NCBI GenBank assembly: GCA_049314535.1
Contig: JBMOEX010000001.1
Coordinates: 404 to 64,403, forward strand
DNA from: Vampirovibrionia bacterium
Lineage (GTDB): Bacteria > Cyanobacteriota > Vampirovibrionia > LMEP-6097
DNA: 64,000 bases
Direction: 5' to 3'
This document shows positions 3,983 through 41,657 of the stretch, in pieces. Each line of letters opens with the position of its first letter. The stretch's first letter is position 1. The position numbers and the translations under genes are program-made. The notes under the pieces are model-generated. The model made no database searches. It saw only the letters and a program-made list of their open reading frames with translations, and was not told the origin of the DNA.

Positions 3983-3998
3983 TAGCAAGCTTAATGAT

Positions 3999-4045
3999 GG
4001 GCGTGCAGCCGATGAAAACGCAGAAATTGGAGTTCCGCTACGCCC
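3999..4045. repeat. palindromic repeat element copy at the convergent 3' ends of rluD and rplY
   Basis: gggcgtgcagc-cgatgaaaacgcagaaattggagttcc-gctacgccc. It matches the 121-nt composite element in the FtsX permease (39836..39956). It fills the 67-nt gap between the two stop codons. Confidence 0.6.
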
Positions 4046-8600: not shown

Positions 8601-8669
8601 ATTATTTTTAAAAGACTCCTTTATTCTCTTGTTAGAGAGTTTATGCGTTCTATAATATGATTAAGAACT

Positions 8670-10058
8670 ATGGAACCTCTTTTAGATCCTAATATCGCAG
8701 AGAATCTTATTAATCATGCGTTGAAGCAGGGAGCTGATTTCTGTGATATTTTTATCGAAAGAAAAAATCATTTAAGTTTTAAGCAGGCTTCTAAACAGCT
8801 AGATTCGATTAATTCTGGTATAGATTTTGGTTTAGGTATTCGCTTGATTTATGGTTCTGAAGTTTATTATGGTACGGCAAGTACTTTAGATGAGTTAGAG
8901 CTGTTAAAAATAGTTTCTAATCTTAAGTCTAATGCAAGTTCTGCCGAGGGAAAGCAGGTATTGCCATTTACTGAAACCCTTTTGGGGAGTGATTTGAATT
9001 CTGGTTTAAAGAATGAAGACTGGCAGGAGAAAATCCAATTTTTATTAAATATGGATAGGCAGATGCGTTTTTTGAGTGAGAAGCTTATTCAGGTGAATTT
9101 AAATCTTGCACAAAGCACGCAGGAAGTGCAGATATACAATTCAGAAGGTTTAAATATTTCGGATATTCGTAATTATATTCGCCTCAGTGTAACTGCTATC
9201 GCCGAGGATGGTAATTTAAGAGAGGATGCTTATGAAGCTCCAGGAGCTACTATGGATATGGATTTTATCCGTCAGTTAGATTCTGAGAGCCTTGGAGAGA
9301 AAGTCGTTTCAAGAGCATTAAGGAAGCTTTCTGCGATAGCCTGCCCAGCTGGAAAAATGCCAGTCATTTTAGAAAATGCTTTTGGTGGTGTTATTTTTCA
9401 TGAAGCCTGCGGGCATCTTTTAGAGACTACTAGTGTCCAAAGGCGTTCTAGTGTTTTTTGGGATAAGATGAATCAGCAGATCGCAAATACAGCTGTTACT
9501 GCGGTAGATGACGGTACTATCGCTGATAAGTGGGGCAGTATAAAGATTGATGATGAAGGGCGTCAGACGCAGCGGACTGAATTGATCGTGAATGGAGTTT
9601 TAAAAAACTTTCTTGTGGATTATGTCGGGCATTTAAAAACTCAGTATCCCTTGAGTGCCTCTGCTAGGCGCGAAAGTTATCGTTATGCACCAGCTTCACG
9701 TATGCGTAATACTTTTATTTGCCCAGGTAATTTTTCTCGGGATGAATTAATTTCTTCTATAGATTACGGTCTTTATGCTGAGAGCCTTGGTGGTGGTAGT
9801 GTGATTCCAGGTACTGGTGAGTTTAACTTTGCAGTGAATAGCGGTTATTTAATCGAAAATGGTAAACTAACGAAGCCCGTTAAGGGAGCGACTTTAATCG
9901 GTACTGGTCCTGAAATATTACAGAGAATTTCGATGGTGGGTAAAGAATTAGAACTCGCAGCTGGAATGTGTGGTTCGGTTAGTGGCTCAGTTCCAGTAAC
10001 CGTAGGACAGCCGCCTCTTAAAGTTGATGAGATACTAGTCGGTGGGGAGCTTTCATAA
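8670..10058 (+). CDS. tldD: metalloprotease TldD
   Basis: 462 aa, ..FHEACGHLLE.. HExxxH-type motif, typical TldD length and C-terminus. The pmbA-like paralog follows with a 1-nt overlap. Confidence 0.8.
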   Translation: MEPLLDPNIAENLINHALKQGADFCDIFIERKNHLSFKQASKQLDSINSGIDFGLGIRLIYGSEVYYGTASTLDELELLKIVSNLKSNASSAEGKQVLPFTETLLGSDLNSGLKNEDWQEKIQFLLNMDRQMRFLSEKLIQVNLNLAQSTQEVQIYNSEGLNISDIRNYIRLSVTAIAEDGNLREDAYEAPGATMDMDFIRQLDSESLGEKVVSRALRKLSAIACPAGKMPVILENAFGGVIFHEACGHLLETTSVQRRSSVFWDKMNQQIANTAVTAVDDGTIADKWGSIKIDDEGRQTQRTELIVNGVLKNFLVDYVGHLKTQYPLSASARRESYRYAPASRMRNTFICPGNFSRDELISSIDYGLYAESLGGGSVIPGTGEFNFAVNSGYLIENGKLTKPVKGATLIGTGPEILQRISMVGKELELAAGMCGSVSGSVPVTVGQPPLKVDEILVGGELS

Positions 10059-14643: not shown

Positions 14644-16563
14644 ATGGTACTTAAAGTAAATTATCAGAAAATTATTAAGTCAAAAGCAAGTATATTTGTA
14701 TCGATATTTTTTGTATCAATATTTTTTTTTAATTCGTTCTGTTTCGCTGCTGAGACTATTCAAGAGCCTGTTCAAGAGACCACTGCACATAAGGCGGGTG
14801 AAAACGCAGAAAATGGAGTTGTGCAGTGGTCTCTAAAGCATAAATTCTTAAAGCTTGATGCATTGCCTTCTAATAAGGCTCCTAAAGCTGATGATAAATT
14901 TAATGTGATTTTAGAGGGCGTGTTGAGGTCAGACAGTGGCTTTCAAAAAGAAAGATTACGAGTTTTTCTAGATGATAGTTTAATTTCTAGTCCTGAAGAT
15001 TTTATAATACAAACTTTAGCGAAGGATAATAGAGTTAGGTTTACTTTTGCCAAGAGTGATTTAACTTATAAAGCTAAAGCAGCTAATTTACTTAAGATAA
15101 AGTTTTTAGACACAGAACTCGCGGGGAATATTTTAGCGGAGAGGGAAATACCTGTTTTTTTTAAACCTCGTGATACTTTTGAGACTAGTCCAGCCTTTGG
15201 TGGTTTTTTTGATACGCAGAAAATAGTATCTCTCAAAGTAGGGCTGTATGATGATGCTGCTTCGCAGCTCACTTCTATCGAATCATCTGAAATCTCTTCT
15301 AAGCTTAATAAACCTCTTAAAGTATCTTCAGATAAGAAGAAATTTCTATTAACTTTCGAGCATGATCCCCAGTATATTCAAGGTGAATCAGAGAGTACTT
15401 TTAGTGAAAAAAACTCAGTACTCCTAAATAATTTAAAAATCTTTAGCACAGATGCTAATGGTAAGAGAACTAACGTGACTAGTAAATTTTCTTTTAAGTT
15501 GAAAGCTAATTCTACTCATAAGTTTGCTGATTTTTCGACTCTGATAACTCAATTTACCACTGTAGGATTGGCTTACCCTGATATTCAGATTTTAGAATTT
15601 GTCGTAGATGTCGAAGATTATTTGAAAAAAATTAATGTCTTTTTCCCACAAGATGCACAAACTCGTTCTGAGAAAAGTATCAAGATAGGTGCTATTCAGA
15701 TCCCTTTAAGTACAGTAAATATTAATAAAAATACTATAGTTTTTTATGAAGATACTACGGCTAATCAATTCAGTATGATTAGTGATCCCGTTATTTTAAC
15801 TTCTTCTTATGCCACTGCTTTAAATTTAACGACCGTCTCTGCTTTTGCTTTTAATACTAAAGATATTGAGAACCACCCTCTAGCAGATTTAGCTAACTTG
15901 AAGCTCAGCATAAATCCCGCTCAGAAAACCTCTCTAGATTTAGTTTATGAGTTAGATAATATAGTAGTTAATCCTTCTGAGGTTCAAATACCAGTTAAGT
16001 TAAAGCTGAATAAAACTAAGGGCTTCTTTGTTAAAAATAGGGATTTAATGAATTTTGGTGAGCTTAAGACACTAGATTTACCTTTTGCTTTAATCGTGAA
16101 AAACTCTCTGGGAGTGGATAATGATTTAAGGGGACGTTTTAATCAGGCTTTAATTTTTAAATTTATAGATAGTCCTCATTTTATAGATAAGGCTTCTGCG
16201 ACAGTTAAGCTTAATAAGAATCCTTTAAACCCTTCTCTGGTACTGAAGTTTGATTATAATAACAGTGCAGATAGTTCTGTTGATGCGCTAGATCTGGTTA
16301 TTAATCTTTTAGATGCTAACTCTAATAAAGTCGCTACTGCTAAATTTGAAAATTTTTCGACTCTTACTAAAAAAGCTAGTGGGATTTTTCAGAAAACTCT
16401 AACTAATGCTGAGTTAGGTGAAGCCTTCTTTGCGAATATTTCTGCTGTTACGAAAGTACAGTTGGAGCTTCATAGAGATCAAGATTATTTAAATAGACTC
16501 GCTTTAGACCCTGCTCAGTATCCTGTTTTGAATGAAGTAGATACTTTGTTGTTGATCTTATAG
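14644..16563 (+). CDS. hypothetical secreted protein carrying an in-frame palindromic element insertion
   Basis: 639 aa. Signal-peptide-like N-terminus (FVSIFFVSIFFFNSFCFAAE). Residues ~41-64 (..ETTAHKAGENAENGVVQWSL..) are encoded by repeat copy 14776..14833. Confidence 0.45.
   Translation: MVLKVNYQKIIKSKASIFVSIFFVSIFFFNSFCFAAETIQEPVQETTAHKAGENAENGVVQWSLKHKFLKLDALPSNKAPKADDKFNVILEGVLRSDSGFQKERLRVFLDDSLISSPEDFIIQTLAKDNRVRFTFAKSDLTYKAKAANLLKIKFLDTELAGNILAEREIPVFFKPRDTFETSPAFGGFFDTQKIVSLKVGLYDDAASQLTSIESSEISSKLNKPLKVSSDKKKFLLTFEHDPQYIQGESESTFSEKNSVLLNNLKIFSTDANGKRTNVTSKFSFKLKANSTHKFADFSTLITQFTTVGLAYPDIQILEFVVDVEDYLKKINVFFPQDAQTRSEKSIKIGAIQIPLSTVNINKNTIVFYEDTTANQFSMISDPVILTSSYATALNLTTVSAFAFNTKDIENHPLADLANLKLSINPAQKTSLDLVYELDNIVVNPSEVQIPVKLKLNKTKGFFVKNRDLMNFGELKTLDLPFALIVKNSLGVDNDLRGRFNQALIFKFIDSPHFIDKASATVKLNKNPLNPSLVLKFDYNNSADSSVDALDLVINLLDANSNKVATAKFENFSTLTKKASGIFQKTLTNAELGEAFFANISAVTKVQLELHRDQDYLNRLALDPAQYPVLNEVDTLLLIL
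14776..14833. repeat. palindromic repeat element copy (GAGACC...GGTCTC type), in-frame inside a CDS
   Basis: gagaccactgcaca-taaggcgggtgaaaacgcagaaaatggagt-tgtgcagtggtctc. 14-bp perfect terminal inverted repeats. Confidence 0.7.
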
Positions 16564-16980: not shown

Positions 16981-18204
16981 ATGACCTCATCAGATTTTGA
17001 TACCGTAGAATCAGCTATAGAAGATATTCGTAACGGAAAGATGATTATTGTTGCAGATGACGATAATCGTGAAAATGAAGGTGATTTAATCTGCGCAGCA
17101 GAGAAGGTAAGCCCAGAGATTATTAATTTTATGAGCAAGCATGCTCGTGGTTTGATTTGTTTAACTTTAGATTCAGAGACTGTAAAGAAGCTCAATCTAG
17201 ATGACATGGTAAGGGAAAATACCGATGCTAATAAAACAGCTTTTACCATTAGCATTGATGCTGATCCACGTTTTGGGGTGACTACTGGTATAAGTGCTTT
17301 TGATCGAGCAAAGACTATAGAAGTAGCTTTAGCTAATGACGTAGTCGCCAGTGATCTGAGAAGACCTGGACATATCTTTCCTCTTAAGTCCGTGGAGGGT
17401 GGTGTTTTGAAGAGGGTCGGTCATACTGAGGCTTCAGTGGATCTTGCTCGCTTAGCTGGTCTTAAACCATCTGGAGTTATCTGTGAAATTCTTAAAGATA
17501 ATGGTGAGATGGCTAGGCGTGATGATCTTTTTAAGTATGCTAAAGAGTTTGGGCTGAAATTCATTACTATAGCTGATTTGGTGGCTTATAGACTTAAGAA
17601 AGAACGTTTTGTGCATCGTATTGTAGATGTAGCTCTGCCAAATAAGTATTCCGAAGATTTTAGAATATATGGTTATAAAGATTCTCTTTCGGATAAAGAG
17701 CATGTAGCTTTAGTTTTAGGTGATTTAGAGAAAGCTGTTGAAGATTCTAAGCCAGTTTTAGTTAGGGTGCACAGTGAATGCTTAACTGGAGATTTATTTG
17801 GTAGTTTGCGCTGTGATTGTGGAACCCAGTTAGATGGAGCGATTAAACAGATTCGTGAAGCAGGTTTGGGCGTTTTAGTATATTTAAGGCAGGAAGGTAG
17901 GGGCATTGGTCTTTTAAATAAATTAAAGGCATATGAATTGCAGGATGAAGGTCACGACACGGTTTCAGCTAATTTACAGTTGGGTTTCCCTGCTGATTTA
18001 AGGACTTTTGGTGTAGGAGCACAGATACTTTCCGATTTAGGACTTAAGGAAATTAAACTGCTTACTAATAATCCGAAGAAGATTTATGGGATAGAGGGAT
18101 ATGGTCTGAAAATCACAGAGAGGGTTCCACTGCATTATGAAGCATGTAAGCATAATGAAAAATACTTAGAGACTAAGAGAAACAAGTTAGGTCATTTATT
18201 TTAA
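16981..18204 (+). CDS. ribBA: bifunctional 3,4-dihydroxy-2-butanone-4-phosphate synthase / GTP cyclohydrolase II
   Basis: N-terminal RibB domain (..RENEGDL.., ..GHTEA..). C-terminal RibA domain with the zinc motif CLTGDLFGSLRCDCG and ..RQEGRGIGL.. . Confidence 0.9.
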   Translation: MTSSDFDTVESAIEDIRNGKMIIVADDDNRENEGDLICAAEKVSPEIINFMSKHARGLICLTLDSETVKKLNLDDMVRENTDANKTAFTISIDADPRFGVTTGISAFDRAKTIEVALANDVVASDLRRPGHIFPLKSVEGGVLKRVGHTEASVDLARLAGLKPSGVICEILKDNGEMARRDDLFKYAKEFGLKFITIADLVAYRLKKERFVHRIVDVALPNKYSEDFRIYGYKDSLSDKEHVALVLGDLEKAVEDSKPVLVRVHSECLTGDLFGSLRCDCGTQLDGAIKQIREAGLGVLVYLRQEGRGIGLLNKLKAYELQDEGHDTVSANLQLGFPADLRTFGVGAQILSDLGLKEIKLLTNNPKKIYGIEGYGLKITERVPLHYEACKHNEKYLETKRNKLGHLF

Positions 18205-20264
18205 TGCCGATAAGAATACTATCTGATTTGATTGCTAATCAAATTGCTGCAGGTGAAGTAGTAGAAGGGGCTTTATCTGTTGTTAAAGAATTAGTCGAAA
18301 ACAGTATAGATGCTGGAGCTAATTCGATTGCGGTGGAGCTTAGTAAACAGCTTAGATACATTAAAGTTTCGGATAATGGTTCTGGTATTCCAGTAAATGA
18401 ATTACCTTTAGCTTTCACTCGGCATGCGACTAGTAAGATTACAGAAATAGAGGATTTATTTTCTATAGACTCTAATGGCTTTAGAGGAGAGGCTTTAGCG
18501 AGTATAGCTTCTGTAAGTAGAGTTACCTGTATTAGTAAAACTAGATCTGAAGCTGATGCTACAAAATTTTATATAGATGCTGATAGAGAAGAAGTATCCT
18601 CTGTGGGTGCTGGAGTCGGTACTAGTATAGAGGTAGATGAGCTTTTTTATAATACTCCAGCTCGTTTGAAGTTTATGAAGTCTGTGGTAAAAGAGAAGCA
18701 GAATATTATAGATCTGTTAAAAGCCTTTTCTATATTCAATCCTAATGTTTCTTTTGAACTTTTAATTGATGGAAAAACTCAGTTTAAGGTTTTAAAAGAT
18801 CAGCCTTTTAAAGTTACAGCACGTGAATTATTTGGCAAATCTGTATTTGAGCATTTAATTAATTTCGAATATAATACTGGAGCGATTAAAGTTTCAGGCT
18901 ATTTATCAGCTCCAGAGCTGAATCGTAGCGACAAGCGATATTATTTTACTGCGGTAAATAAGCGTATTATTAAATGTAATACGATAAGATCTGCTGTGGA
19001 TAGGGTTTATAAAGATTTATTACCTGTAAAGAAATATCCTATTATCATTATTAATTTAGAGCTGCCGAGCTCAGACGTCGACGTTAATGTACATCCGCGT
19101 AAACAAGAAGTTAAATACTTACACGCTAATGAAGTTTATAGAACTTTAATCACTGCAATTTCTACTGATTTATCTGAGTATTTTTATAAATGTTCAGAAT
19201 ATAAACAGTTAGAGATTTTCAATCCAGTACTAGCAGATTTAGAACCTCATGCTGATTCGGATCTTAGTGGTGAGGAGCGTCCTAGCCTTTTTTCTGAAAG
19301 AGAATATACACCTTCAATACTGAGGAGGACGAATGACCGCAGTGTAATTTCCAGCGATGCCGAGCCTGCAACATCAATTGAAGATTGCGAGCAGTCCCCT
19401 TTGGAGACTGGGGTGAGTGAAAGTGGCATCATGCATCAGTCTCGCTGTGACAGTGATAAAACTTTATCTTTCCTTACAAGGTTCCCATCTATTGAGGTGA
19501 ATTTTATAGAAGGAGATCTTTCTGATTACCTTGAGGGTATTAGCTTTGATGAGCGAGAAGAGAGTTTTAAAATCTTCAGTGCTAATGCTGATCAGTCTTT
19601 TGGGTTTTTAGTAACAGGTAAATTATTTCCAGTCGATGAAAGTATACAGGATTTATATTTAGACTCTTTAGAAGTATTTACGAAGAAGCTGTTAGAGACT
19701 AAATCTGAAGATAATTTACTGTATGCTGAATCTAATTCTTTAAAGGAGTTAGCCATAATGACGGGAGGTACTTCTTTAGATAAACAAGCTGCAACTAAAC
19801 TACTTTCTAAAAAGAAACCAGCGACTAAACTTTCAAGACCTAGTATAAAACCTCCTTTAGGACAGCTTGAAGAGATTTGGGCTAGAGATAATTATTCATG
19901 TGTATACTGTGCTAAAGCACTTATTCATCCTAAGGTGGTGAAGCAGGCTTTACTTAGAGCTGAATCTGAGTCAATCTCTTGGCTGAATGCACGCAATGAA
20001 AAAATTAGCGAGCATTTGATTGAAGCACATAAAGCTTCCTTTGATCATCATTTGCCAGCTTCTAAATTTGCGGTCTTGAATTTAGACTCTCGTAATCTTT
20101 TTGCTACTTGCAGGGAATGTAATCAGAGAAAATCTGCAAGTTTAGCTAGTAAAACTTGGACACCACGGCAAGTAAATTCTTGGGCTAATTTTTCAATTAA
20201 TAATCCCTTAGAGCTAGCTGGAGTAAAATTTATATCAGCGTTAGAGGCGATTTATGATAATTAA
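18204..20264 (+). CDS. mutL: DNA mismatch repair protein MutL with an atypical C-terminal HNH nuclease domain
   Basis: GHKL ATPase N-terminus (..ELVENSIDAGA.., ..DNGSGI.., ..GFRGEAL..) and transducer domain (..VNVHPRKQEV..). The C-terminus has CVYCAK...DHHLPASKF...NLFATCRECNQRKS, which is an HNH motif. An in-frame repeat insert lies in the linker. Confidence 0.8.
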   Translation: MPIRILSDLIANQIAAGEVVEGALSVVKELVENSIDAGANSIAVELSKQLRYIKVSDNGSGIPVNELPLAFTRHATSKITEIEDLFSIDSNGFRGEALASIASVSRVTCISKTRSEADATKFYIDADREEVSSVGAGVGTSIEVDELFYNTPARLKFMKSVVKEKQNIIDLLKAFSIFNPNVSFELLIDGKTQFKVLKDQPFKVTARELFGKSVFEHLINFEYNTGAIKVSGYLSAPELNRSDKRYYFTAVNKRIIKCNTIRSAVDRVYKDLLPVKKYPIIIINLELPSSDVDVNVHPRKQEVKYLHANEVYRTLITAISTDLSEYFYKCSEYKQLEIFNPVLADLEPHADSDLSGEERPSLFSEREYTPSILRRTNDRSVISSDAEPATSIEDCEQSPLETGVSESGIMHQSRCDSDKTLSFLTRFPSIEVNFIEGDLSDYLEGISFDEREESFKIFSANADQSFGFLVTGKLFPVDESIQDLYLDSLEVFTKKLLETKSEDNLLYAESNSLKELAIMTGGTSLDKQAATKLLSKKKPATKLSRPSIKPPLGQLEEIWARDNYSCVYCAKALIHPKVVKQALLRAESESISWLNARNEKISEHLIEAHKASFDHHLPASKFAVLNLDSRNLFATCRECNQRKSASLASKTWTPRQVNSWANFSINNPLELAGVKFISALEAIYDN
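19320..19443. repeat. mosaic repeat element insertion inside the mutL linker region
   Basis: ctgaggaggacgaatgaccgcagtgta (19320..19346) matches the FtsX-permease composite element, where it encodes LRRTNDR(N/S)V. A further hairpin follows at 19404..19443: gagactgg...cagtctc. Confidence 0.6.
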
Positions 20265-23200
20265 GCTAATAGCCTATCTTTGTTTTTTTTTAAGTGGCTT
20301 TGCTGCACTGGTACATGAGCTTTCTTGGTCACGTATTTTAAAGCAGGTTTTTATTTCTGAATCACTAAGCACGGCTTTAGTTTTAATAATTTTTTTTGGT
20401 GGCATCGCTATAGGTTCTTATTTAGCTGCAGCTTTAAGTAAATTCTTTTATCCAGCTAAGAGTTCCTATGCCTCTTTGTTTATTTTTAGTATTTTAAATT
20501 TAGTTTTAGCTTTTTTAACTTATTTAACTGGTAATTTCTTTAATCCAGAGCATTTATTTTCTTCATTAATGTTAGCCCCTATTTCCATACTCTTGGGTAG
20601 CTTATTTCCATTATTGAGTAATTTCTATGTTGCGTATCGTGAAAATAATACTGAGAAATCTAATACAGTCTCCAAAGTATATTTTGTGAATACCTTTGCT
20701 GGATTGCTTGCTATTTTTTTTGTGATTTTCTTTGCTTTTAAACAGCTTGGTTTAAAGCTTACCCTGCATAATCTTGCGATTCTACATCTTTCTATATTTA
20801 TTCTAAGCTTTTTGCCATCTCTATTTAATATCAAGGCTGTAGTCGTTGAGATTTTTGAGTCGATTAAAATATTTACTTTAAATCTTAGTTTACATAGTCC
20901 TAAAAATCAATTATCAAAAGCTTTCGATGACGATAATGTAGAAGATGAAACTCTTTTGAATATTGAGACTCAAGGATCTAAGGTATTGCTGTGGCTTAGC
21001 TTTGCCTTTGGTTTTATTTTATTGGGGCTTGAGCTTGTCTGGATGAGAGCTTTTAGTCTTATTCTAGCTAGTTCAGTTTACTCTTTTGCTATGGTTCTTG
21101 CGGCAGTTATATTTGGTCTTGCTTTAGGAACTTTTATATTCTACTTAGTAGCTAAACCTCTTAAACTCAGTCAGGGAAATAGTTTTGAAGATGATATTGA
21201 GCATATTAATTGGCTTGTGTTGCTTTTGGCAGCCTTAATTTTCATCAGTTCATTTAGCTTTAAATCCCTTACAGGTACTTATTTATATTTAATAGATTCG
21301 GTGGGATTTTTATTGAATGATTTTCATCGAGAGGATTTATATAAAACTGCTTTGAGTTTTATGAAATTTATACTAGCTGGTATAGTTGTGGTGCCAGTTT
21401 CTGCGACTATAGCTTTTGCTAGTACCTATTTATTACAGATATTTACCTACAGTGATTATCTGAACGATAGATATAGAGTGCTTAATGCAGGTGCTAATAT
21501 CGGTAAAGTTTTTTCTATTAATACTCTTGGTGGTATTCTTGGTTCTTTTGTTACAGTTTTCTTTTTTATTCCTTCGCTAGATGGTGGTCTTAATCAGTGT
21601 TTCCTGATATTTAATTTAATAGCTTTACTTACTTTAGCGATTACTCTTAGTTTTTCTAAAGAGAAACAGTATTTTTTATTTTTTATTGCAGCTTTGTGTT
21701 TCATAGCTTTGATTCTTTTAAAGCCGAATTTTATTACAGCTAGAACAGCTAGTGGAGCAGAGCTCTATTATGCATTAAAGTACAGAGGTGAGCAAGGATA
21801 TTATGTAGATGACACTCAGGAAGAGGTTTTGTTTCATCAAGATGGGCTCTATTCTACAGTAACCGTTATTAAAGATAGTTTCGCTAATACTATTTATTTG
21901 AAAAATAATGCAAAAGTTGAAGCTGGTATCCCAATTGAGGATGAGATATTCTCAGCAGCTGATATGCAAACGCAAGTTTTACTAGGTGTCGCTCCTAAGT
22001 ATTTTAAAGATGAGTTTAATAATATTTTACTTATTGGAATGGGCTCTGGGATTACTTTAGACTCACTTGCGATGATTAGTGGTGATGCTAAACTATGCGT
22101 GGCGGAGATAGAGGATCTAGTCTTTAAGGCGGCTGATAAATTCTTTTCTCAGGCTTGGCAAGCTATTCCAGATAAGAAAATTACTAGATATAGGGGTAAT
22201 GCTCGCTCGCTGATTAAATCATCTAAAGAAAAATATGATTTAATCGTTTCACAGCCTTCTGATCCTTGGCTATCAGCAGATATGTTTACTGATGAATTCT
22301 GGAAATTAGCTCATAGTAAGCTTTCTAAAGATGGAATTTTTGTCCAGTGGTTGCAGCTTTATTCTTTAGAGCCTAAGTATCTTTTACTGACTTTAAATAC
22401 CCTGAAGCATAATTTTAAACATTTACTAGTAATTCATCCGCCACGTACTGCTGAAATTATAATACTTGCTAGTGATAAGGATTTTCGCTTTAGAGATTTT
22501 AATGTAGATAAATATCCTTATTTGAAAACCAGTCTGAATCGAGTTTCTATACATAATTCAGCAGACTTTATGGCAAATATTATGCTTGCACCGAAAGATG
22601 TGAAAAATTTATTAGTAGTTGAAGTTCCTCGCCTGGATTTGCCTGCACCGATGTTGAATAATTCTAATAATTCTTTACTTGAGTTTCATACAGCTGAAAA
22701 TTTTTATAAGTTTTCAGAAACTATTAATCAAAATTTACAGGCATTAACATCTTATGTATCTTTCGAACATATTTTATCTTTAGCTAAATATAATTCTGAG
22801 TCTGAGAAAATAGCTTTAGTTCAGGCTTTAAGAGCTAATTACCAAAAGAGTTTATCAGGCCAGTCTTTAAAAACACGGGCTTCTTTTTATAAGAATAAGC
22901 TTTATACACAGTCTTTAAGTTCTGGGACTATTCCCTTGCTAAGTGAGGAGGATGAACTGGAAGATACTTTGGTTTTAAAAACTGCTTCAGAGGCTGATGC
23001 TGAGTATAAATTAAAAGAGGATCAGTTAATAAAAGAAAAATTATTAAAGGAAGAGGCTTTGAAAAAGCAGTTGGAGATTGATTCTAATTTATCGGAAGAA
23101 GAGAAGAAAAAAAGAAAAGAGCTTGAGGCAGAGGAAGATATAGAAGTTCAAGATATTGAAATAGTGCATAAACCACTAAATATTTCATCTGCTGATGAAA

Positions 23201-23595
23201 AGAACTATAAGAGTCTTTTAGGGATTGGGGTTAAGAATTTCGAGCAGGGTTTTTATGACGATGCTGAAAAGAATTTTAGAACCGCATTGAAAATAGATCC
23301 TAATTTGGATCAAGCTTATTTATATTTAGCTCAGATAAAGCTTTTAATGAAGGATGATAACAAGTTTCTGGAATATATAAATTATTGCCTCAGAATAAAT
23401 CCTTTTAACGTAAAAGCTCTGTATCTAGCTGCTGATTATAATTACAGCTTTGCATCATTAGCTAAGGCGACTTTTTATGTAGATAGATTATTCATGGATA
23501 CTGACTATAAAACTAAACTAACGGCTGATGAGATAAATAAACTCATGAAGATTAGGAAGAAGCTAGCAGAGATTTTAGAGAAAAATCACCCTTAG
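20254..23595 (+). CDS. large polytopic membrane protein with spermidine-synthase-like domain and C-terminal TPR repeats
   Basis: 1113 aa, with at least 12 hydrophobic segments. A SpeE-like motif (..DLIVSQPSDPW..) sits mid-protein. A Lys/Glu-rich coiled region and TPR-like repeats lie at the C-terminus. 11-nt overlap with mutL. Confidence 0.65.
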   Translation: MIIKLIAYLCFFLSGFAALVHELSWSRILKQVFISESLSTALVLIIFFGGIAIGSYLAAALSKFFYPAKSSYASLFIFSILNLVLAFLTYLTGNFFNPEHLFSSLMLAPISILLGSLFPLLSNFYVAYRENNTEKSNTVSKVYFVNTFAGLLAIFFVIFFAFKQLGLKLTLHNLAILHLSIFILSFLPSLFNIKAVVVEIFESIKIFTLNLSLHSPKNQLSKAFDDDNVEDETLLNIETQGSKVLLWLSFAFGFILLGLELVWMRAFSLILASSVYSFAMVLAAVIFGLALGTFIFYLVAKPLKLSQGNSFEDDIEHINWLVLLLAALIFISSFSFKSLTGTYLYLIDSVGFLLNDFHREDLYKTALSFMKFILAGIVVVPVSATIAFASTYLLQIFTYSDYLNDRYRVLNAGANIGKVFSINTLGGILGSFVTVFFFIPSLDGGLNQCFLIFNLIALLTLAITLSFSKEKQYFLFFIAALCFIALILLKPNFITARTASGAELYYALKYRGEQGYYVDDTQEEVLFHQDGLYSTVTVIKDSFANTIYLKNNAKVEAGIPIEDEIFSAADMQTQVLLGVAPKYFKDEFNNILLIGMGSGITLDSLAMISGDAKLCVAEIEDLVFKAADKFFSQAWQAIPDKKITRYRGNARSLIKSSKEKYDLIVSQPSDPWLSADMFTDEFWKLAHSKLSKDGIFVQWLQLYSLEPKYLLLTLNTLKHNFKHLLVIHPPRTAEIIILASDKDFRFRDFNVDKYPYLKTSLNRVSIHNSADFMANIMLAPKDVKNLLVVEVPRLDLPAPMLNNSNNSLLEFHTAENFYKFSETINQNLQALTSYVSFEHILSLAKYNSESEKIALVQALRANYQKSLSGQSLKTRASFYKNKLYTQSLSSGTIPLLSEEDELEDTLVLKTASEADAEYKLKEDQLIKEKLLKEEALKKQLEIDSNLSEEEKKKRKELEAEEDIEVQDIEIVHKPLNISSADEKNYKSLLGIGVKNFEQGFYDDAEKNFRTALKIDPNLDQAYLYLAQIKLLMKDDNKFLEYINYCLRINPFNVKALYLAADYNYSFASLAKATFYVDRLFMDTDYKTKLTADEINKLMKIRKKLAEILEKNHP

Positions 23596-23690
23596 AGACC
23601 ACTGCACAACTCCATTTTCTGCGTTTTCGTTGTGCAGCGGTCTCTCATGCACAACGTGCAGTTTCTGCGTTTTCGTTTTCTGCGTTTTGA
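23595..23690. repeat. palindromic element plus degenerate tandem sub-repeats between the convergent speE-like and clpC 3' ends
   Basis: gagaccactgcacaac-tccattttctgcgttttc-gttgtgcagcggtctc at 23595..23644, overlapping the TAG stop. Then come further copies of the ttctgcgttttcg unit (..gtttctgcgttttcgttttctgcgttttg..). Confidence 0.7.
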
Positions 23691-38876: not shown

Positions 38877-41657
38877 CTAAAATGCTTCATCCTTTTCTAA
38901 TTCCCTTGGTGAGACTTTGGATTGAGTCTGGCTTGGGAAGATCGCTGCGATTAAGGCTGCTGTTACTGATATTAGAGTTGCAAGCAGTATACTCTTAAAA
39001 TCGAGTGAGAAATTAATATCCCAACCGAAGGAGCGATGATTTATAACAAAAATCATTACCCAAGCGGAAGCAATGCCAAGTGGTATCGCAAAGATACTGG
39101 ATAGTAATCCCATTGTAAAGGCTTGTAAGGAAATTGATCTTTGAATGTCTTGCTTAGACATTCCTAAAGCTTTTAAAAGAGCGAATTCTTTTTCTCTTTC
39201 AATAATCAAGGATAGCAAAGCACTGAATATGCCAAAAGCGGCTACTATCACTGCGATGATCTTTAATGCTGATGTTACTCTAAATGTTCTATCGAAAATC
39301 TCTAAAGATTCTTTGAGAAGTTCTTTGTTTGAGCGTATATCAAAGAAAGTCGGAGAAAGGCTTTCTTCAGCAGCTTTGATTTTATAAGCTTCGATATAAG
39401 TTTTTATTTTATCTAGTTTTGGATTATTTTTTTTATTCGTAAGTAGGGACCACTGCACAACTCCATTTTCTGCGTTTTCGTTGTCATTTGTTTTTTTTAC
39501 TTCTGTGGATTCTTTTAGGAAAATACCAAGCGAGCTTAAATTAGGATCTTCCCACAGTGAGCGATATAGGTCTTGATGCATCATTAAAAGACCTTGATCA
39601 GAGCTGTAATCATTAAATATTCCCAAGATGGTAAATGTCTGTAATCCTTTGTCTGTTTGAAGTTTCACTCGATCATTGCATCTAACTTTATGCTTGTAGG
39701 CATAGGGAGCAGAAGCAATAAGACCTTGGCCTTTATCAAATTTATTCCAAATATCTTTAGTAGATTCTTTGAAAGTAAAAGAATTTTTTACGATAGGTAG
39801 GGAATTTATGCTCGCCACTCTAGTTGAGCCATATTGGGCGTGTAGCGGAACTCCAATTTCTGCGTTTTCGTCGTCCTCATGATCCTCATGTACTCCCAGT
39901 ACATTCCGGTCATTCGTCCTCCTCAGCCTTGAACTTGTTCGTTCGGCTACACGCCCATATTCACCAATTACATCTCGCAAGTGATATTCACTAATACCTA
40001 TTATGTCTTCAGTCTGAAAGGTTTTGGTGAATTCTATTACTTTATTATTCAATGTTATATGGTTACGATGTGACACTTGTTTGGGAGTGGATATGTAAAT
40101 GTCTGCAAATAAAGAAGCTGAAAGCCAGTCTTCTACAGTATTTCGGAAACTATTGATTGCGATATCGAGTGAAAGGTAGAGAGAGATAGCTACTGTCAGT
40201 GCTGCAATCGCTATAGCGTTACGGCTAAGATTCTTTTTAAGACTTCTTAGTGATATTAAAGAAGCTAATCCAAAAGTGTTTCTATAAAGCGGCTCTAAAA
40301 TGTAATCGCTATGATAGGTGAGAAATGGTATGAAGCAGCTAAATCCAATAACCATTATAAATAAGCCAAAAAAGCAAGCTGAGATATTTTTTTCAAAAAT
40401 CAGAAACAGTAATAGTGATAAAGAAATTAAAACTAAGCCTGCAATATTTAATTTTGGAAGATATTTTTTGACTGTCTCTTCAATGTCTATATTCTTTATA
40501 ACTTTAGTCACCGGACTGTTACTAGCTTCGTAAGCAGGTACTAGCGCTGATAACAATGCCGCAAATACACCTATTAATCCAGCTTTGAGAAATGTGATAT
40601 TACTGATATGTATCTGGCTTACTTGTAAAACAAAATAAAGATCATTAATAGTTCTTACGATAAAGCTTAAAAGAACGTTAGCGAGTAGGTAGCCTAATCC
40701 GATGCCTATCAGTGAACCGATTATTGCAAATAGCAGTGATTCAAATATTATTAAAGAAAAAATTTCTTTTTGACTGACGCCGATTGTTCTGAGAAAGCCA
40801 AATATTTTGCGACGCTGAAGAACCGCAAATGTCATAGTGTTATAAATTAAAAAGATGCCAACCAGCATAGCTAAAAGACTTAGAGCACTAAGATTAGCAT
40901 TGAAGGATTTAGTCATGGATTCTTGAGCTTGATTGCGTTCTGAGGATTTAATTAAAACTAGACTAGGATCTATAGCAAAGAGTATATTTTTTAACTCATT
41001 CTCTTCTTCTGGCTTCAGAATTAAATCTATTCTGCTTATATAGTTTTGTAATTTTAATAATTCTTGAGCTGTAGATATATCCATGAACAGCAAGTTATCA
41101 AGGGACGTACTAGCTGGGGCGTTATCTGAATCAATTAGACCATAAAGTTTTAGGCGATAGGTTTCGTCATTTTGATCTATCAGTAAAGGATCTCCAGGCA
41201 GAATTCTAAATTTCTCTGCAGTATGCTTTGTGGTGAAAAAACCTTCTAGCTTATTAATAAAAGCTGATGGATTATATTGCTTTCTGGAATTGAACTCTTT
41301 AAAAATACTTCTAAAAGCTATATCACTGAAGGGATCTATACCAATAACCTTGAGCAAACGATTATTCTTAGTGACGAAACCTTCTATAAGAGGAGTTACT
41401 GTGAGTTTATATTTATTCTCTAAATTGACAACCAGCTCTTCGTCTATTTTCCCTCCATTATTAATAATATGGTGAGTAGCTTTGCCATTTATAATTTCAG
41501 TGGAAAGCTCAAACGATTTTTTAGCAGATTCTATCGCTAAGTCTGTGGCTGTGATAATTGCGACAGAAAGAACTATGCCAGTTATTAAAGAAGCGAATTG
41601 CCAGATGTTTTTAGTTAAGAATCTAATACTTGAAAGATATAGTGATTTAGTTAACAA
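38877..41657 (-). CDS. ABC transporter permease with two FtsX domains (MacB/YbbP-like), carrying two in-frame repeat insertions
   Basis: 926 aa. Two FtsX-type 4-TM modules with large extracytoplasmic domains. Inserted peptides are ..NENAENGVVQWSL.. and ..YGRVAERTSSRLRRTNDRNVLGVHEDHEDDENAEIGVPLHAQYG.. . Confidence 0.75.
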   Translation of the reverse strand: MLTKSLYLSSIRFLTKNIWQFASLITGIVLSVAIITATDLAIESAKKSFELSTEIINGKATHHIINNGGKIDEELVVNLENKYKLTVTPLIEGFVTKNNRLLKVIGIDPFSDIAFRSIFKEFNSRKQYNPSAFINKLEGFFTTKHTAEKFRILPGDPLLIDQNDETYRLKLYGLIDSDNAPASTSLDNLLFMDISTAQELLKLQNYISRIDLILKPEEENELKNILFAIDPSLVLIKSSERNQAQESMTKSFNANLSALSLLAMLVGIFLIYNTMTFAVLQRRKIFGFLRTIGVSQKEIFSLIIFESLLFAIIGSLIGIGLGYLLANVLLSFIVRTINDLYFVLQVSQIHISNITFLKAGLIGVFAALLSALVPAYEASNSPVTKVIKNIDIEETVKKYLPKLNIAGLVLISLSLLLFLIFEKNISACFFGLFIMVIGFSCFIPFLTYHSDYILEPLYRNTFGLASLISLRSLKKNLSRNAIAIAALTVAISLYLSLDIAINSFRNTVEDWLSASLFADIYISTPKQVSHRNHITLNNKVIEFTKTFQTEDIIGISEYHLRDVIGEYGRVAERTSSRLRRTNDRNVLGVHEDHEDDENAEIGVPLHAQYGSTRVASINSLPIVKNSFTFKESTKDIWNKFDKGQGLIASAPYAYKHKVRCNDRVKLQTDKGLQTFTILGIFNDYSSDQGLLMMHQDLYRSLWEDPNLSSLGIFLKESTEVKKTNDNENAENGVVQWSLLTNKKNNPKLDKIKTYIEAYKIKAAEESLSPTFFDIRSNKELLKESLEIFDRTFRVTSALKIIAVIVAAFGIFSALLSLIIEREKEFALLKALGMSKQDIQRSISLQAFTMGLLSSIFAIPLGIASAWVMIFVINHRSFGWDINFSLDFKSILLATLISVTAALIAAIFPSQTQSKVSPRELEKDEAF
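39446..39486. repeat. partial palindromic element copy (left arm plus core), in-frame in the permease CDS
   Basis: gggaccactgcacaactccattttctgcgttttcgttgtc matches the 23595 copy apart from one arm mismatch and loss of the right arm. Confidence 0.65.
39836..39956. repeat. 121-nt composite palindromic element with perfect 11-bp terminal inverted repeats, in-frame in the permease CDS
   Basis: Terminal inverted repeats gggcgtgtagc and gctacacgccc are perfect. Internal segments recur at 4010..4036 (core), 19320..19346 (MutL) and 575..603 (amidase). Confidence 0.7.

Follow-up and report, generated by a model that had tools for sequence, protein, structure and literature searches.

A predicted HNH nuclease module in place of the canonical C-terminal domain in the MutL of Caenarcaniphilales-type bacteria

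We analyzed the mutL gene found in a stretch of 64,000 nucleotides (nt) from a Vampirovibrionia bacterium (assembly GCA_049314535.1, contig JBMOEX010000001.1, positions 404 to 64,403 of the forward strand), which we call here the window. The gene is a single unbroken open reading frame (ORF) whose ATG overlaps the stop codon of ribBA (TAATG) and whose final 11 nt overlap the start of the ORF downstream (the parts of the gene are listed in Table 1). The identical protein is found at NCBI (P0015) under the title [quoted passage not shown], MAG standing for metagenome-assembled genome. The initial annotation of the window had described this gene as a MutL that ends in an HNH nuclease and whose canonical endonuclease motif looks degenerate. 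The core of that description has been borne out, namely, a genuine MutL, with an HNH module at its C-terminus and lacking the canonical endonuclease site. The ORF proved to be intact, and every string quoted from its translation could be located: CVYC at amino acids (aa) 566-569, FDHHLPASKF at aa 613-622, LNLDSRNL at aa 625-632, and CRECNQRKS at aa 636-644. We regard this MutL-HNH architecture as close to certain.

Table 1. Parts of the mutL-HNH gene, in window positions. Ratios of nonsynonymous to synonymous substitution rates (dN/dS) were computed between the window and five orthologs; over the two linkers together they span 0.22-0.79.
Feature	Residues (aa)	Window positions	Strand	dN/dS	Remarks
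mutL-HNH gene		18204..20264	+		Single unbroken ORF, 686 aa plus stop
MutL N-terminal region, GHKL ATPase and transducer	1-330	18204..19193	+	0.08-0.16	Pfam, TIGR00585, motifs
Short linear motif KQLEIF	334-339	19203..19220	+		Family consensus Q-x-[S/E]-[L/I/F] (aa 335-338)
Variable linker 1	341-421	19224..19466	+	0.24-0.71	G+C-rich, relaxed selection
Dispersed-repeat remnant	371-381	19308-19346 (19313-19344 by BLAST)	+		Translated in frame as SILRRTNDRSV
Middle module	422-505	19467..19718	+	0.08-0.15	Predicted: four antiparallel beta-strands, then a long helix; no known family
Linker 2	506-547	19719..19844	+	0.22-0.79	Predicted local distance difference test (pLDDT) 45-60
HNH (beta-beta-alpha-metal) module	548-686	19845..20261	+	0.06-0.17	Pfam/PADLOC matches, invariant residues

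The N-terminal half has the sequence of an ordinary MutL ATPase and is presumably active. In Pfam it matches HATPase_c_3 (aa 25-127, E = 2e-12) and the transducer family DNA_mis_repair (PF01119, aa 207-323, E = 7e-34). The NCBIfam model TIGR00585 is matched with 401 bits against a cutoff of 180, yet the match covers only positions 1-327 of the 555 in the profile. All the GHKL motifs are intact (ELVENSIDA at aa 29-37, DNGSGI at aa 57-62, GFRGEAL at aa 92-98, and GVGTSIEV at aa 137-144), as is the transducer motif HPRK (aa 297-300), and the identity to the N-terminal halves of canonical MutLs is ~45%. The GHKL ATPase and transducer called at the outset are therefore confirmed.

The canonical C-terminal domain could not be found. 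Pfam MutL_C (PF08676) gives no match in the window protein even at E<=10, and neither DQHx3Ex4E nor C[PN]HGRP occurs in any of 87 full-length members of the family, including the identical copy of the window protein (the ACR and FxR motifs were not systematically searched); the absence of the canonical motifs reported by the initial annotation is thus a property of the whole set. In the nearest canonical MutLs, DQHx3Ex4E is present in 33 out of 33 proteins and C[PN]HGRP in 32, while none of the 33 carries the HNH motif. No family member was seen with MutL_C and HNH in the same protein, i.e., no intermediate between the two architectures came to light. The segment LFPVDESIQDLYLDSLE had been aligned by eye with the DQHA motif and read as its degenerate form. 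The profile of aa 424-520 compared with the profile of the canonical C-terminal domain gives an hhalign probability of 0.1%, and the alignment is thus unsupported. Judging from these comparisons, the entire canonical domain, with its dimerization, endonuclease, and clamp-binding parts, is gone rather than degenerate. Of the two options considered initially, that the HNH nuclease had replaced the intrinsic nicking site or had been added to it, only the replacement holds. The opposite outcome, a normal MutL_C with an intact metal-binding motif and no significant HNH match, is not what the profile searches returned.

The C-terminal module shows the catalytic residues, the [CxxC]2 zinc site (C566/C569 and C636/C639), and the predicted beta-beta-alpha-metal fold of the HNH superfamily, and its identification as HNH is, at the sequence level, better than chance. 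PF01844 is matched by all of 25 diverse members at E<=0.1 (best E = 8e-07); P0153, P0157, and P0159 pass the Pfam threshold (22.3, 25.0, and 21.7 bits, respectively), and P0078 has a precomputed HNH match. The core of the window module (aa 610-650) matches PDC-M01B (E = 6e-09) and Septu PtuB (E = 6e-05) in PADLOC. Among 25 diverse members there is no change at the catalytic residues D614-H615, N626, N631, and N640 or at the four cysteines, and the full HNH motif is found in 84 of 87. The module also carries a conserved C-terminal extension (SLASKTW...NSW in the window). The best sequence match of the family profile in the PDB is the HNH domain of an Actinomyces Cas9, aligned over DH..P..N..NL..C..CN..KS; a PDB sequence search with the C-terminal half alone returned spurious histone matches only.

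Between the transducer and the HNH module we found two other conserved elements. The first is the middle module, of ~85 aa, which is predicted with confidence (pLDDT 89) and conserved through most of the family; its helix has ~40 residues and runs on to ~aa 520. A Pfam scan of this module gave nothing consistent and no family. The second is a short motif just past the transducer, in which Q335 is kept in 54 of 59 nonredundant rows and aa 338 is L, I, or F in the same proportion (54/59); the mean top-residue frequency in the remaining linker is 0.22. The clamp-binding consensus is QL(D/S)LF (PMC6511837), which the motif fits only in part (QLEIF in the window), and it may be regarded, hypothetically, as a candidate beta-clamp-binding motif. 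Close orthologs differ by indels exactly in linker 1, and linker 2 is probably disordered, given its low pLDDT.

The same architecture is shared by ~95 clusters at 90% identity, retrieved by the full-length search, with proteins of 579-727 aa, identities down to 34%, the whole query covered, and no PF08676. Canonical MutLs with PF08676 begin at ~300 bits and align to the N-terminal 47% of the query only. All the named members belong to Caenarcaniphilales/Melainabacteria (Vampirovibrionia), and the related loci come from MAGs labeled as Caenarcaniphilales, Caenarcanales, Melainabacteria, or "Cyanobacteria bacterium". Nine full-length divergent representatives (P0147, P0152-P0154, and P0156-P0160) all have HATPase_c_3 and DNA_mis_repair without MutL_C. 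Protein searches by word index with the C-terminal part alone gave 8-10 matches, badly underreporting the family, which was corrected by the full-length search and by an exhaustive search with a profile of the HNH module over 1.84 billion representatives. The latter retrieved 1054 proteins at E<=1e-3. At least 90 bits were scored by 22 representatives at 50% identity; apart from fragments, all of these are proteins of MutL length that end in the module. Beyond the fusion family the scores fall to 66 bits or less, and the listed matches are short proteins that we took as generic HNH; within the 1.84 billion representatives, this HNH subfamily turned up at MutL C-termini only, and never as a free-standing protein. 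In a separate genome scan, the closest non-MutL relative of the module was a conserved free-standing HNH protein of ~185 aa in Bdellovibrio and Pseudobdellovibrionaceae chromosomes (L010-L018), with 25-31% identity, the pattern RDNYTCQYC...LDHVVPAS...CRECNQRKANRTP, and ordinary short CxxC-to-DH spacing. In one contig labeled "MAG: Proteobacteria bacterium WB4_1_1465" (L004, RFQS01000113.1), the C-terminal region of mutL has 94% identity to that of the window, and the remaining gene order agrees as well; this contig probably belongs to Caenarcaniphilales and was mis-binned or mislabeled.

Selection constrains the HNH and middle modules no less than the ATPase domain, and the linkers are relaxed (Table 1). 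The gene order ribBA-mutL-spermidine-synthase-like-ClpB-FtsH is kept between divergent members. The absence of intermediates, the distribution, the synteny, and the dN/dS values together point to one ancient event in which an orthologous housekeeping mutL had its entire C-terminal region replaced, with selection maintaining the outcome since then. From these comparisons, MutL-HNH is best described as the fixed, vertically inherited state of the whole lineage. The "evidently plastic" region of the initial annotation cannot be upheld as a one-off locus, the fusion being fixed in the ~95 clusters and in the 22 representatives at 50% identity. Nor does a stop codon separate a downstream HNH gene, as dozens of independent assemblies give an unbroken ORF. 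A stand-alone C-terminal piece of 211 aa in the databases (P0004) was rejected as a split gene: it derives from a long-read contig (L020, ERZ28548099, 299 kb) riddled with frameshifts, which break practically all genes into 2-5 pieces, ribBA, mutL, ClpB, and FtsH among them, while the synteny ribBA-mutL-SpeE-like-ClpB-FtsH is preserved.

In organisms without MutH, MutL is an ATPase dimerized through its C-terminal part, where a metal site cuts the nascent strand once MutS and the beta-clamp have given license (PMC6511837), and [CxxC]2 HNH enzymes, GVE2 HNHE included, are typically DNA-nicking (PMC5304195, PMC3592412). We propose that the window gene is the orthologous housekeeping mutL of a Caenarcaniphilales-type (Vampirovibrionia/Melainabacteria) bacterium with an exchanged C-terminal domain, acting as a mismatch-repair nickase, and assign to this model as a whole a probability of roughly 60%. 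An ancestor of the lineage would have exchanged the whole canonical domain for a module of beta-sheet plus long helix and a zinc-stabilized [CxxC]2 HNH. Recruited by mismatch-bound MutS, the GHKL ATPase and transducer would dimerize at the N-terminus, driven by ATP, and clamp on DNA. The constitutive contact between the C-terminal parts of the dimer would come from the middle module, whose combination of sheet and long helix is common in dimerization modules. The HNH module, on its flexible linker, would make the single-strand incision that in other MutH-less organisms is made by the DQHA/CPHGRP metal site. Finally, the Q-x-S/E-L/I/F motif past the transducer could be a relocated beta-clamp-binding motif giving activation and strand choice. 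For MutL-HNH we infer the nicking, the role in mismatch repair, the dimerization through the middle module, and the clamp binding, and a function as mismatch-repair nickase seems to us slightly favored over its absence. A more tentative extension, for which the odds fall a little short of even, is that the whole order runs mismatch repair with such a rebuilt MutL, derived by a one-step exchange for a dimerization module and an HNH nickase, with the clamp motif re-created in the linker.

Several observations weigh against this model. No MutS signature was found in the window and 23 loci (453 kb in total; whole genomes lay outside the search). The Q-motif of most members strays from QL(D/S)LF, being commonly Q-P-S-L/I/F-x-D/E, and may not bind the clamp. 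The fold matches of the middle module are generic only, which leaves its role in dimerization conjectural. Lastly, Pfam HNH gives the window protein 15.7-17.6 bits, under the gathering score of 21.4, so that of the "textbook HNH" of the initial annotation the HNH stands but the "textbook" does not. The low score is likely due to an insert of 44 residues between the first CxxC and DH; across the family this spacing clusters at 30 and 44-46 residues.

Considering that restriction-modification-like systems are known to include GHKL ATPases associated with HNH or restriction nucleases (PMC2292703), and that the best local matches of the HNH core include the defense nucleases PDC-M01B and Septu PtuB, MutL-HNH might have left mismatch repair and become an ATP-gated nuclease acting in defense, anti-recombination, or the processing of recombination intermediates, similarly to MORC or paraMORC. 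However, the N-terminal half is nearest to canonical MutL and not to MORC, PADLOC gives no match on the GHKL part, mutL-HNH lies next to ribBA in a conserved housekeeping operon rather than in a defense island, and its inheritance is vertical across the lineage. The MutL-type N-terminus, the lack of a PADLOC GHKL match, and the housekeeping neighbors rule out a MORC/paraMORC defense ATPase as the identity of the protein, and a role outside repair in general seems unlikely. Somewhat less probable still is a catalytically silent HNH, i.e., a zinc finger serving in DNA binding or dimerization in a MutL acting as matchmaker for a separate nuclease, on the model of E. coli MutL and MutH. Inactive HNH-like domains do exist (the resemblance of DotN/IcmJ to the profile is confined to the zinc knuckle, RDxYTCxxC), and the subthreshold Pfam score of the window copy is compatible with this idea. 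Nevertheless, D614, H615, N626/N631, and N640 vary little or not at all, even in the most divergent members, and a purely structural domain need not keep catalytic positions, which makes a structural zinc domain improbable.

The middle module could also be seen as a degenerate canonical C-terminal domain that persists, with the HNH merely appended to it. It has a four-stranded sheet packed by a helix, it is placed where the C-terminal domain would begin, and its LFPVDES can be aligned by eye with the D of DQHA. Against this, besides the hhalign probability already given, the module has only ~85 aa versus ~190 aa in canonical relatives, counted from slightly ahead of the DQH motif up to the C-terminus, and the supposed metal-binding positions are not conserved in the family, so that we consider a remnant very improbable. 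An artefact or selfish element (a misassembled or read-through mutL plus downstream HNH gene, or a recent homing endonuclease), for which only the stand-alone entry P0004 could speak, is effectively refuted by the origin of that entry in a contig with all genes fragmented, by the ~95 independent clusters with an unbroken fusion, by the lack of free-standing copies of the subfamily in the exhaustive search, and by the strong purifying selection on the HNH module.

By its N-terminal half, then, the protein is a member of the MutL family; it lacks the C-terminal features that define the endonuclease type, namely, the MutL_C fold and the metal-site motifs, and its C-terminal module has the sequence and fold features of the HNH superfamily. 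With the endonuclease-type MutL (Bacillus subtilis, Aquifex, Neisseria, and the eukaryotic PMS2/MLH3), it shares an orthologous GHKL ATPase and transducer, a nuclease of its own at the C-terminus past a flexible linker, and presumably the MutH-free nicking of the nascent strand. However, its C-terminal domain is nonhomologous, without the MutL_C fold, DQHA(x)2E(x)4E, or CPHGRP, and without the regulatory subdomain in which the clamp-binding motif is embedded; the nuclease is of the beta-beta-alpha-metal type, and the putative dimerization element is a new module of ~85 aa. The E. coli-type MutL plus MutH, with which YisB of Bacillus (a proposed HNH MutH-analogue) can be grouped, is similar in that a MutL without the DQHA site depends on an unrelated nuclease. 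There, however, MutL keeps the MutL_C dimerization fold and MutH has a restriction-endonuclease fold, not HNH, whereas here the nuclease is covalently fused and replaces the C-terminal domain.

A parallel in design is MutS7, including the octocoral mtMutS, a mismatch-repair ATPase with a C-terminal HNH for which in-house incision and self-contained repair have been proposed (PMC3166940). Both are core mismatch-repair ATPases with a C-terminal HNH endonuclease, but the fusion partner is MutS in one case and MutL in the other, they arose by independent events in different lineages (MutS7 and mtMutS are found in epsilonproteobacteria, giant viruses, and octocoral mitochondria), and MutS7 retains its own dimerization domain while MutL-HNH has lost its own. 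As for the module itself, the best structural match is to the [CxxC]2 HNH nicking endonucleases of phages (GVE2 HNHE and Gamma HNH), which share the beta-beta-alpha-metal core and the four-cysteine zinc site. The phage enzymes are small, free-standing, and terminase associated, in contrast to the MutL module, which has a CxxC-to-DH insert of 30-46 residues and the C-terminal extension SLAxKTW...NxW.

The C-terminal endonuclease of MutL is regarded as the activity that universally makes the incision where mismatch repair is independent of MutH, in organisms ranging from bacteria to humans. There is still debate on how the clamp and MutS license this endonuclease and on how it selects the strand. 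We found no description of a MutL-HNH fusion in the full-text literature searched (subscription journals were outside its coverage, and this is not proof of absence). The wholesale replacement by an HNH would amount to a natural domain-swap experiment on the DNA-cutting part of mismatch repair. It could reveal which C-terminal properties (dimerization, clamp contact, or active-site geometry relative to the clamp) are essential and which can be substituted, and whether strand discrimination survives with a tethered, unrelated nuclease. If the nickase model is true, the MutL "molecular switch" would be nuclease-agnostic, with incision possible by an unrelated beta-beta-alpha-metal site on a flexible tether, and MutL-HNH would be a natural counterpart of MutS7-HNH and a natural version of engineered ATPase-nickase fusions. 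It would also stand beside the MutS7-HNH fusions as a parallel of separate origin; the function of those fusions is itself still inferred. The database label "DNA mismatch repair endonuclease MutL" hides, in this family, a different kind of endonuclease.

The neighbors of mutL in the window are ribBA, the spermidine-synthase-like gene, ClpB, FtsH, and the alanyl-tRNA synthetase (AlaRS), an arrangement that looks like a tight housekeeping operon. The ORF immediately downstream (20254-23595, + strand, 1113 aa) combines numerous stretches predicted to span the membrane with a spermidine-synthase-like domain (aa 579-722, E = 1.5e-09) and a C-terminus resembling tetratricopeptide repeats (TPR), and it still adjoins mutL in the divergent locus L020. 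An Rfam scan found no RNA families in the window.

Linker 1 contains the remnant of a dispersed repeat. The initial annotation had placed a repeat insertion at 19320..19443; a repeat is indeed present in the linker, although a repeat origin can be demonstrated for ~35-40 nt only (Table 1) and not for that range as a whole. The remnant is 85% complementary to positions 39900-39938 of the window and is 93.8% identical over 32 nt to an element within the mutL ortholog of L002. This element (8630-8863, 234 nt) sits in frame inside the GHKL ATPase domain of that mutL; it matches window positions 39835-39957 with 93.5% identity over 123 nt, and about six further sites of the window match it as well. 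The G+C content over ~19250-19474 is 0.48, versus about 0.33.

Besides the remnant in mutL, the sites of this repeat family in the window are 14799-14836 (+), 39835-39957 (-), 39444-39485 (-), 23592-23633 (-), 3994-4041 (+), 574-601, and 2496-2527. The family resembles miniature inverted-repeat transposable elements (MITE-like), with a core GAAAACGCAGAAA(A/T)TGGAGTT and a second module GAGGAGGACGAATGACCG, and is reminiscent of the Rickettsia palindromic elements, being inserted in frame within coding genes and translated into peptides such as ENAE(I/N)GV and SSRLRRTNDRS. In one MutL-HNH (P0049), a copy lies between the middle module and the HNH. In members from another sublineage (P0072, P0075, and P0081), the ATPase/transducer region and the linker hold in-frame inserts of a different kind, among them SSHCEAHSAEAIHNG, HCEEGEAI, SLRGTECRSNPHA, and QWIASPSARN. 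These resemble the translated copies of a further widespread repeat family, and it therefore seems that mutL tolerates such insertions in the lineage generally. The MITE-like repeat itself is also present in frame (ENAENGVVQW) in a window ORF at 14644-16563 (+ strand, 639 aa), with a signal-peptide-like N-terminus and no obvious annotation.

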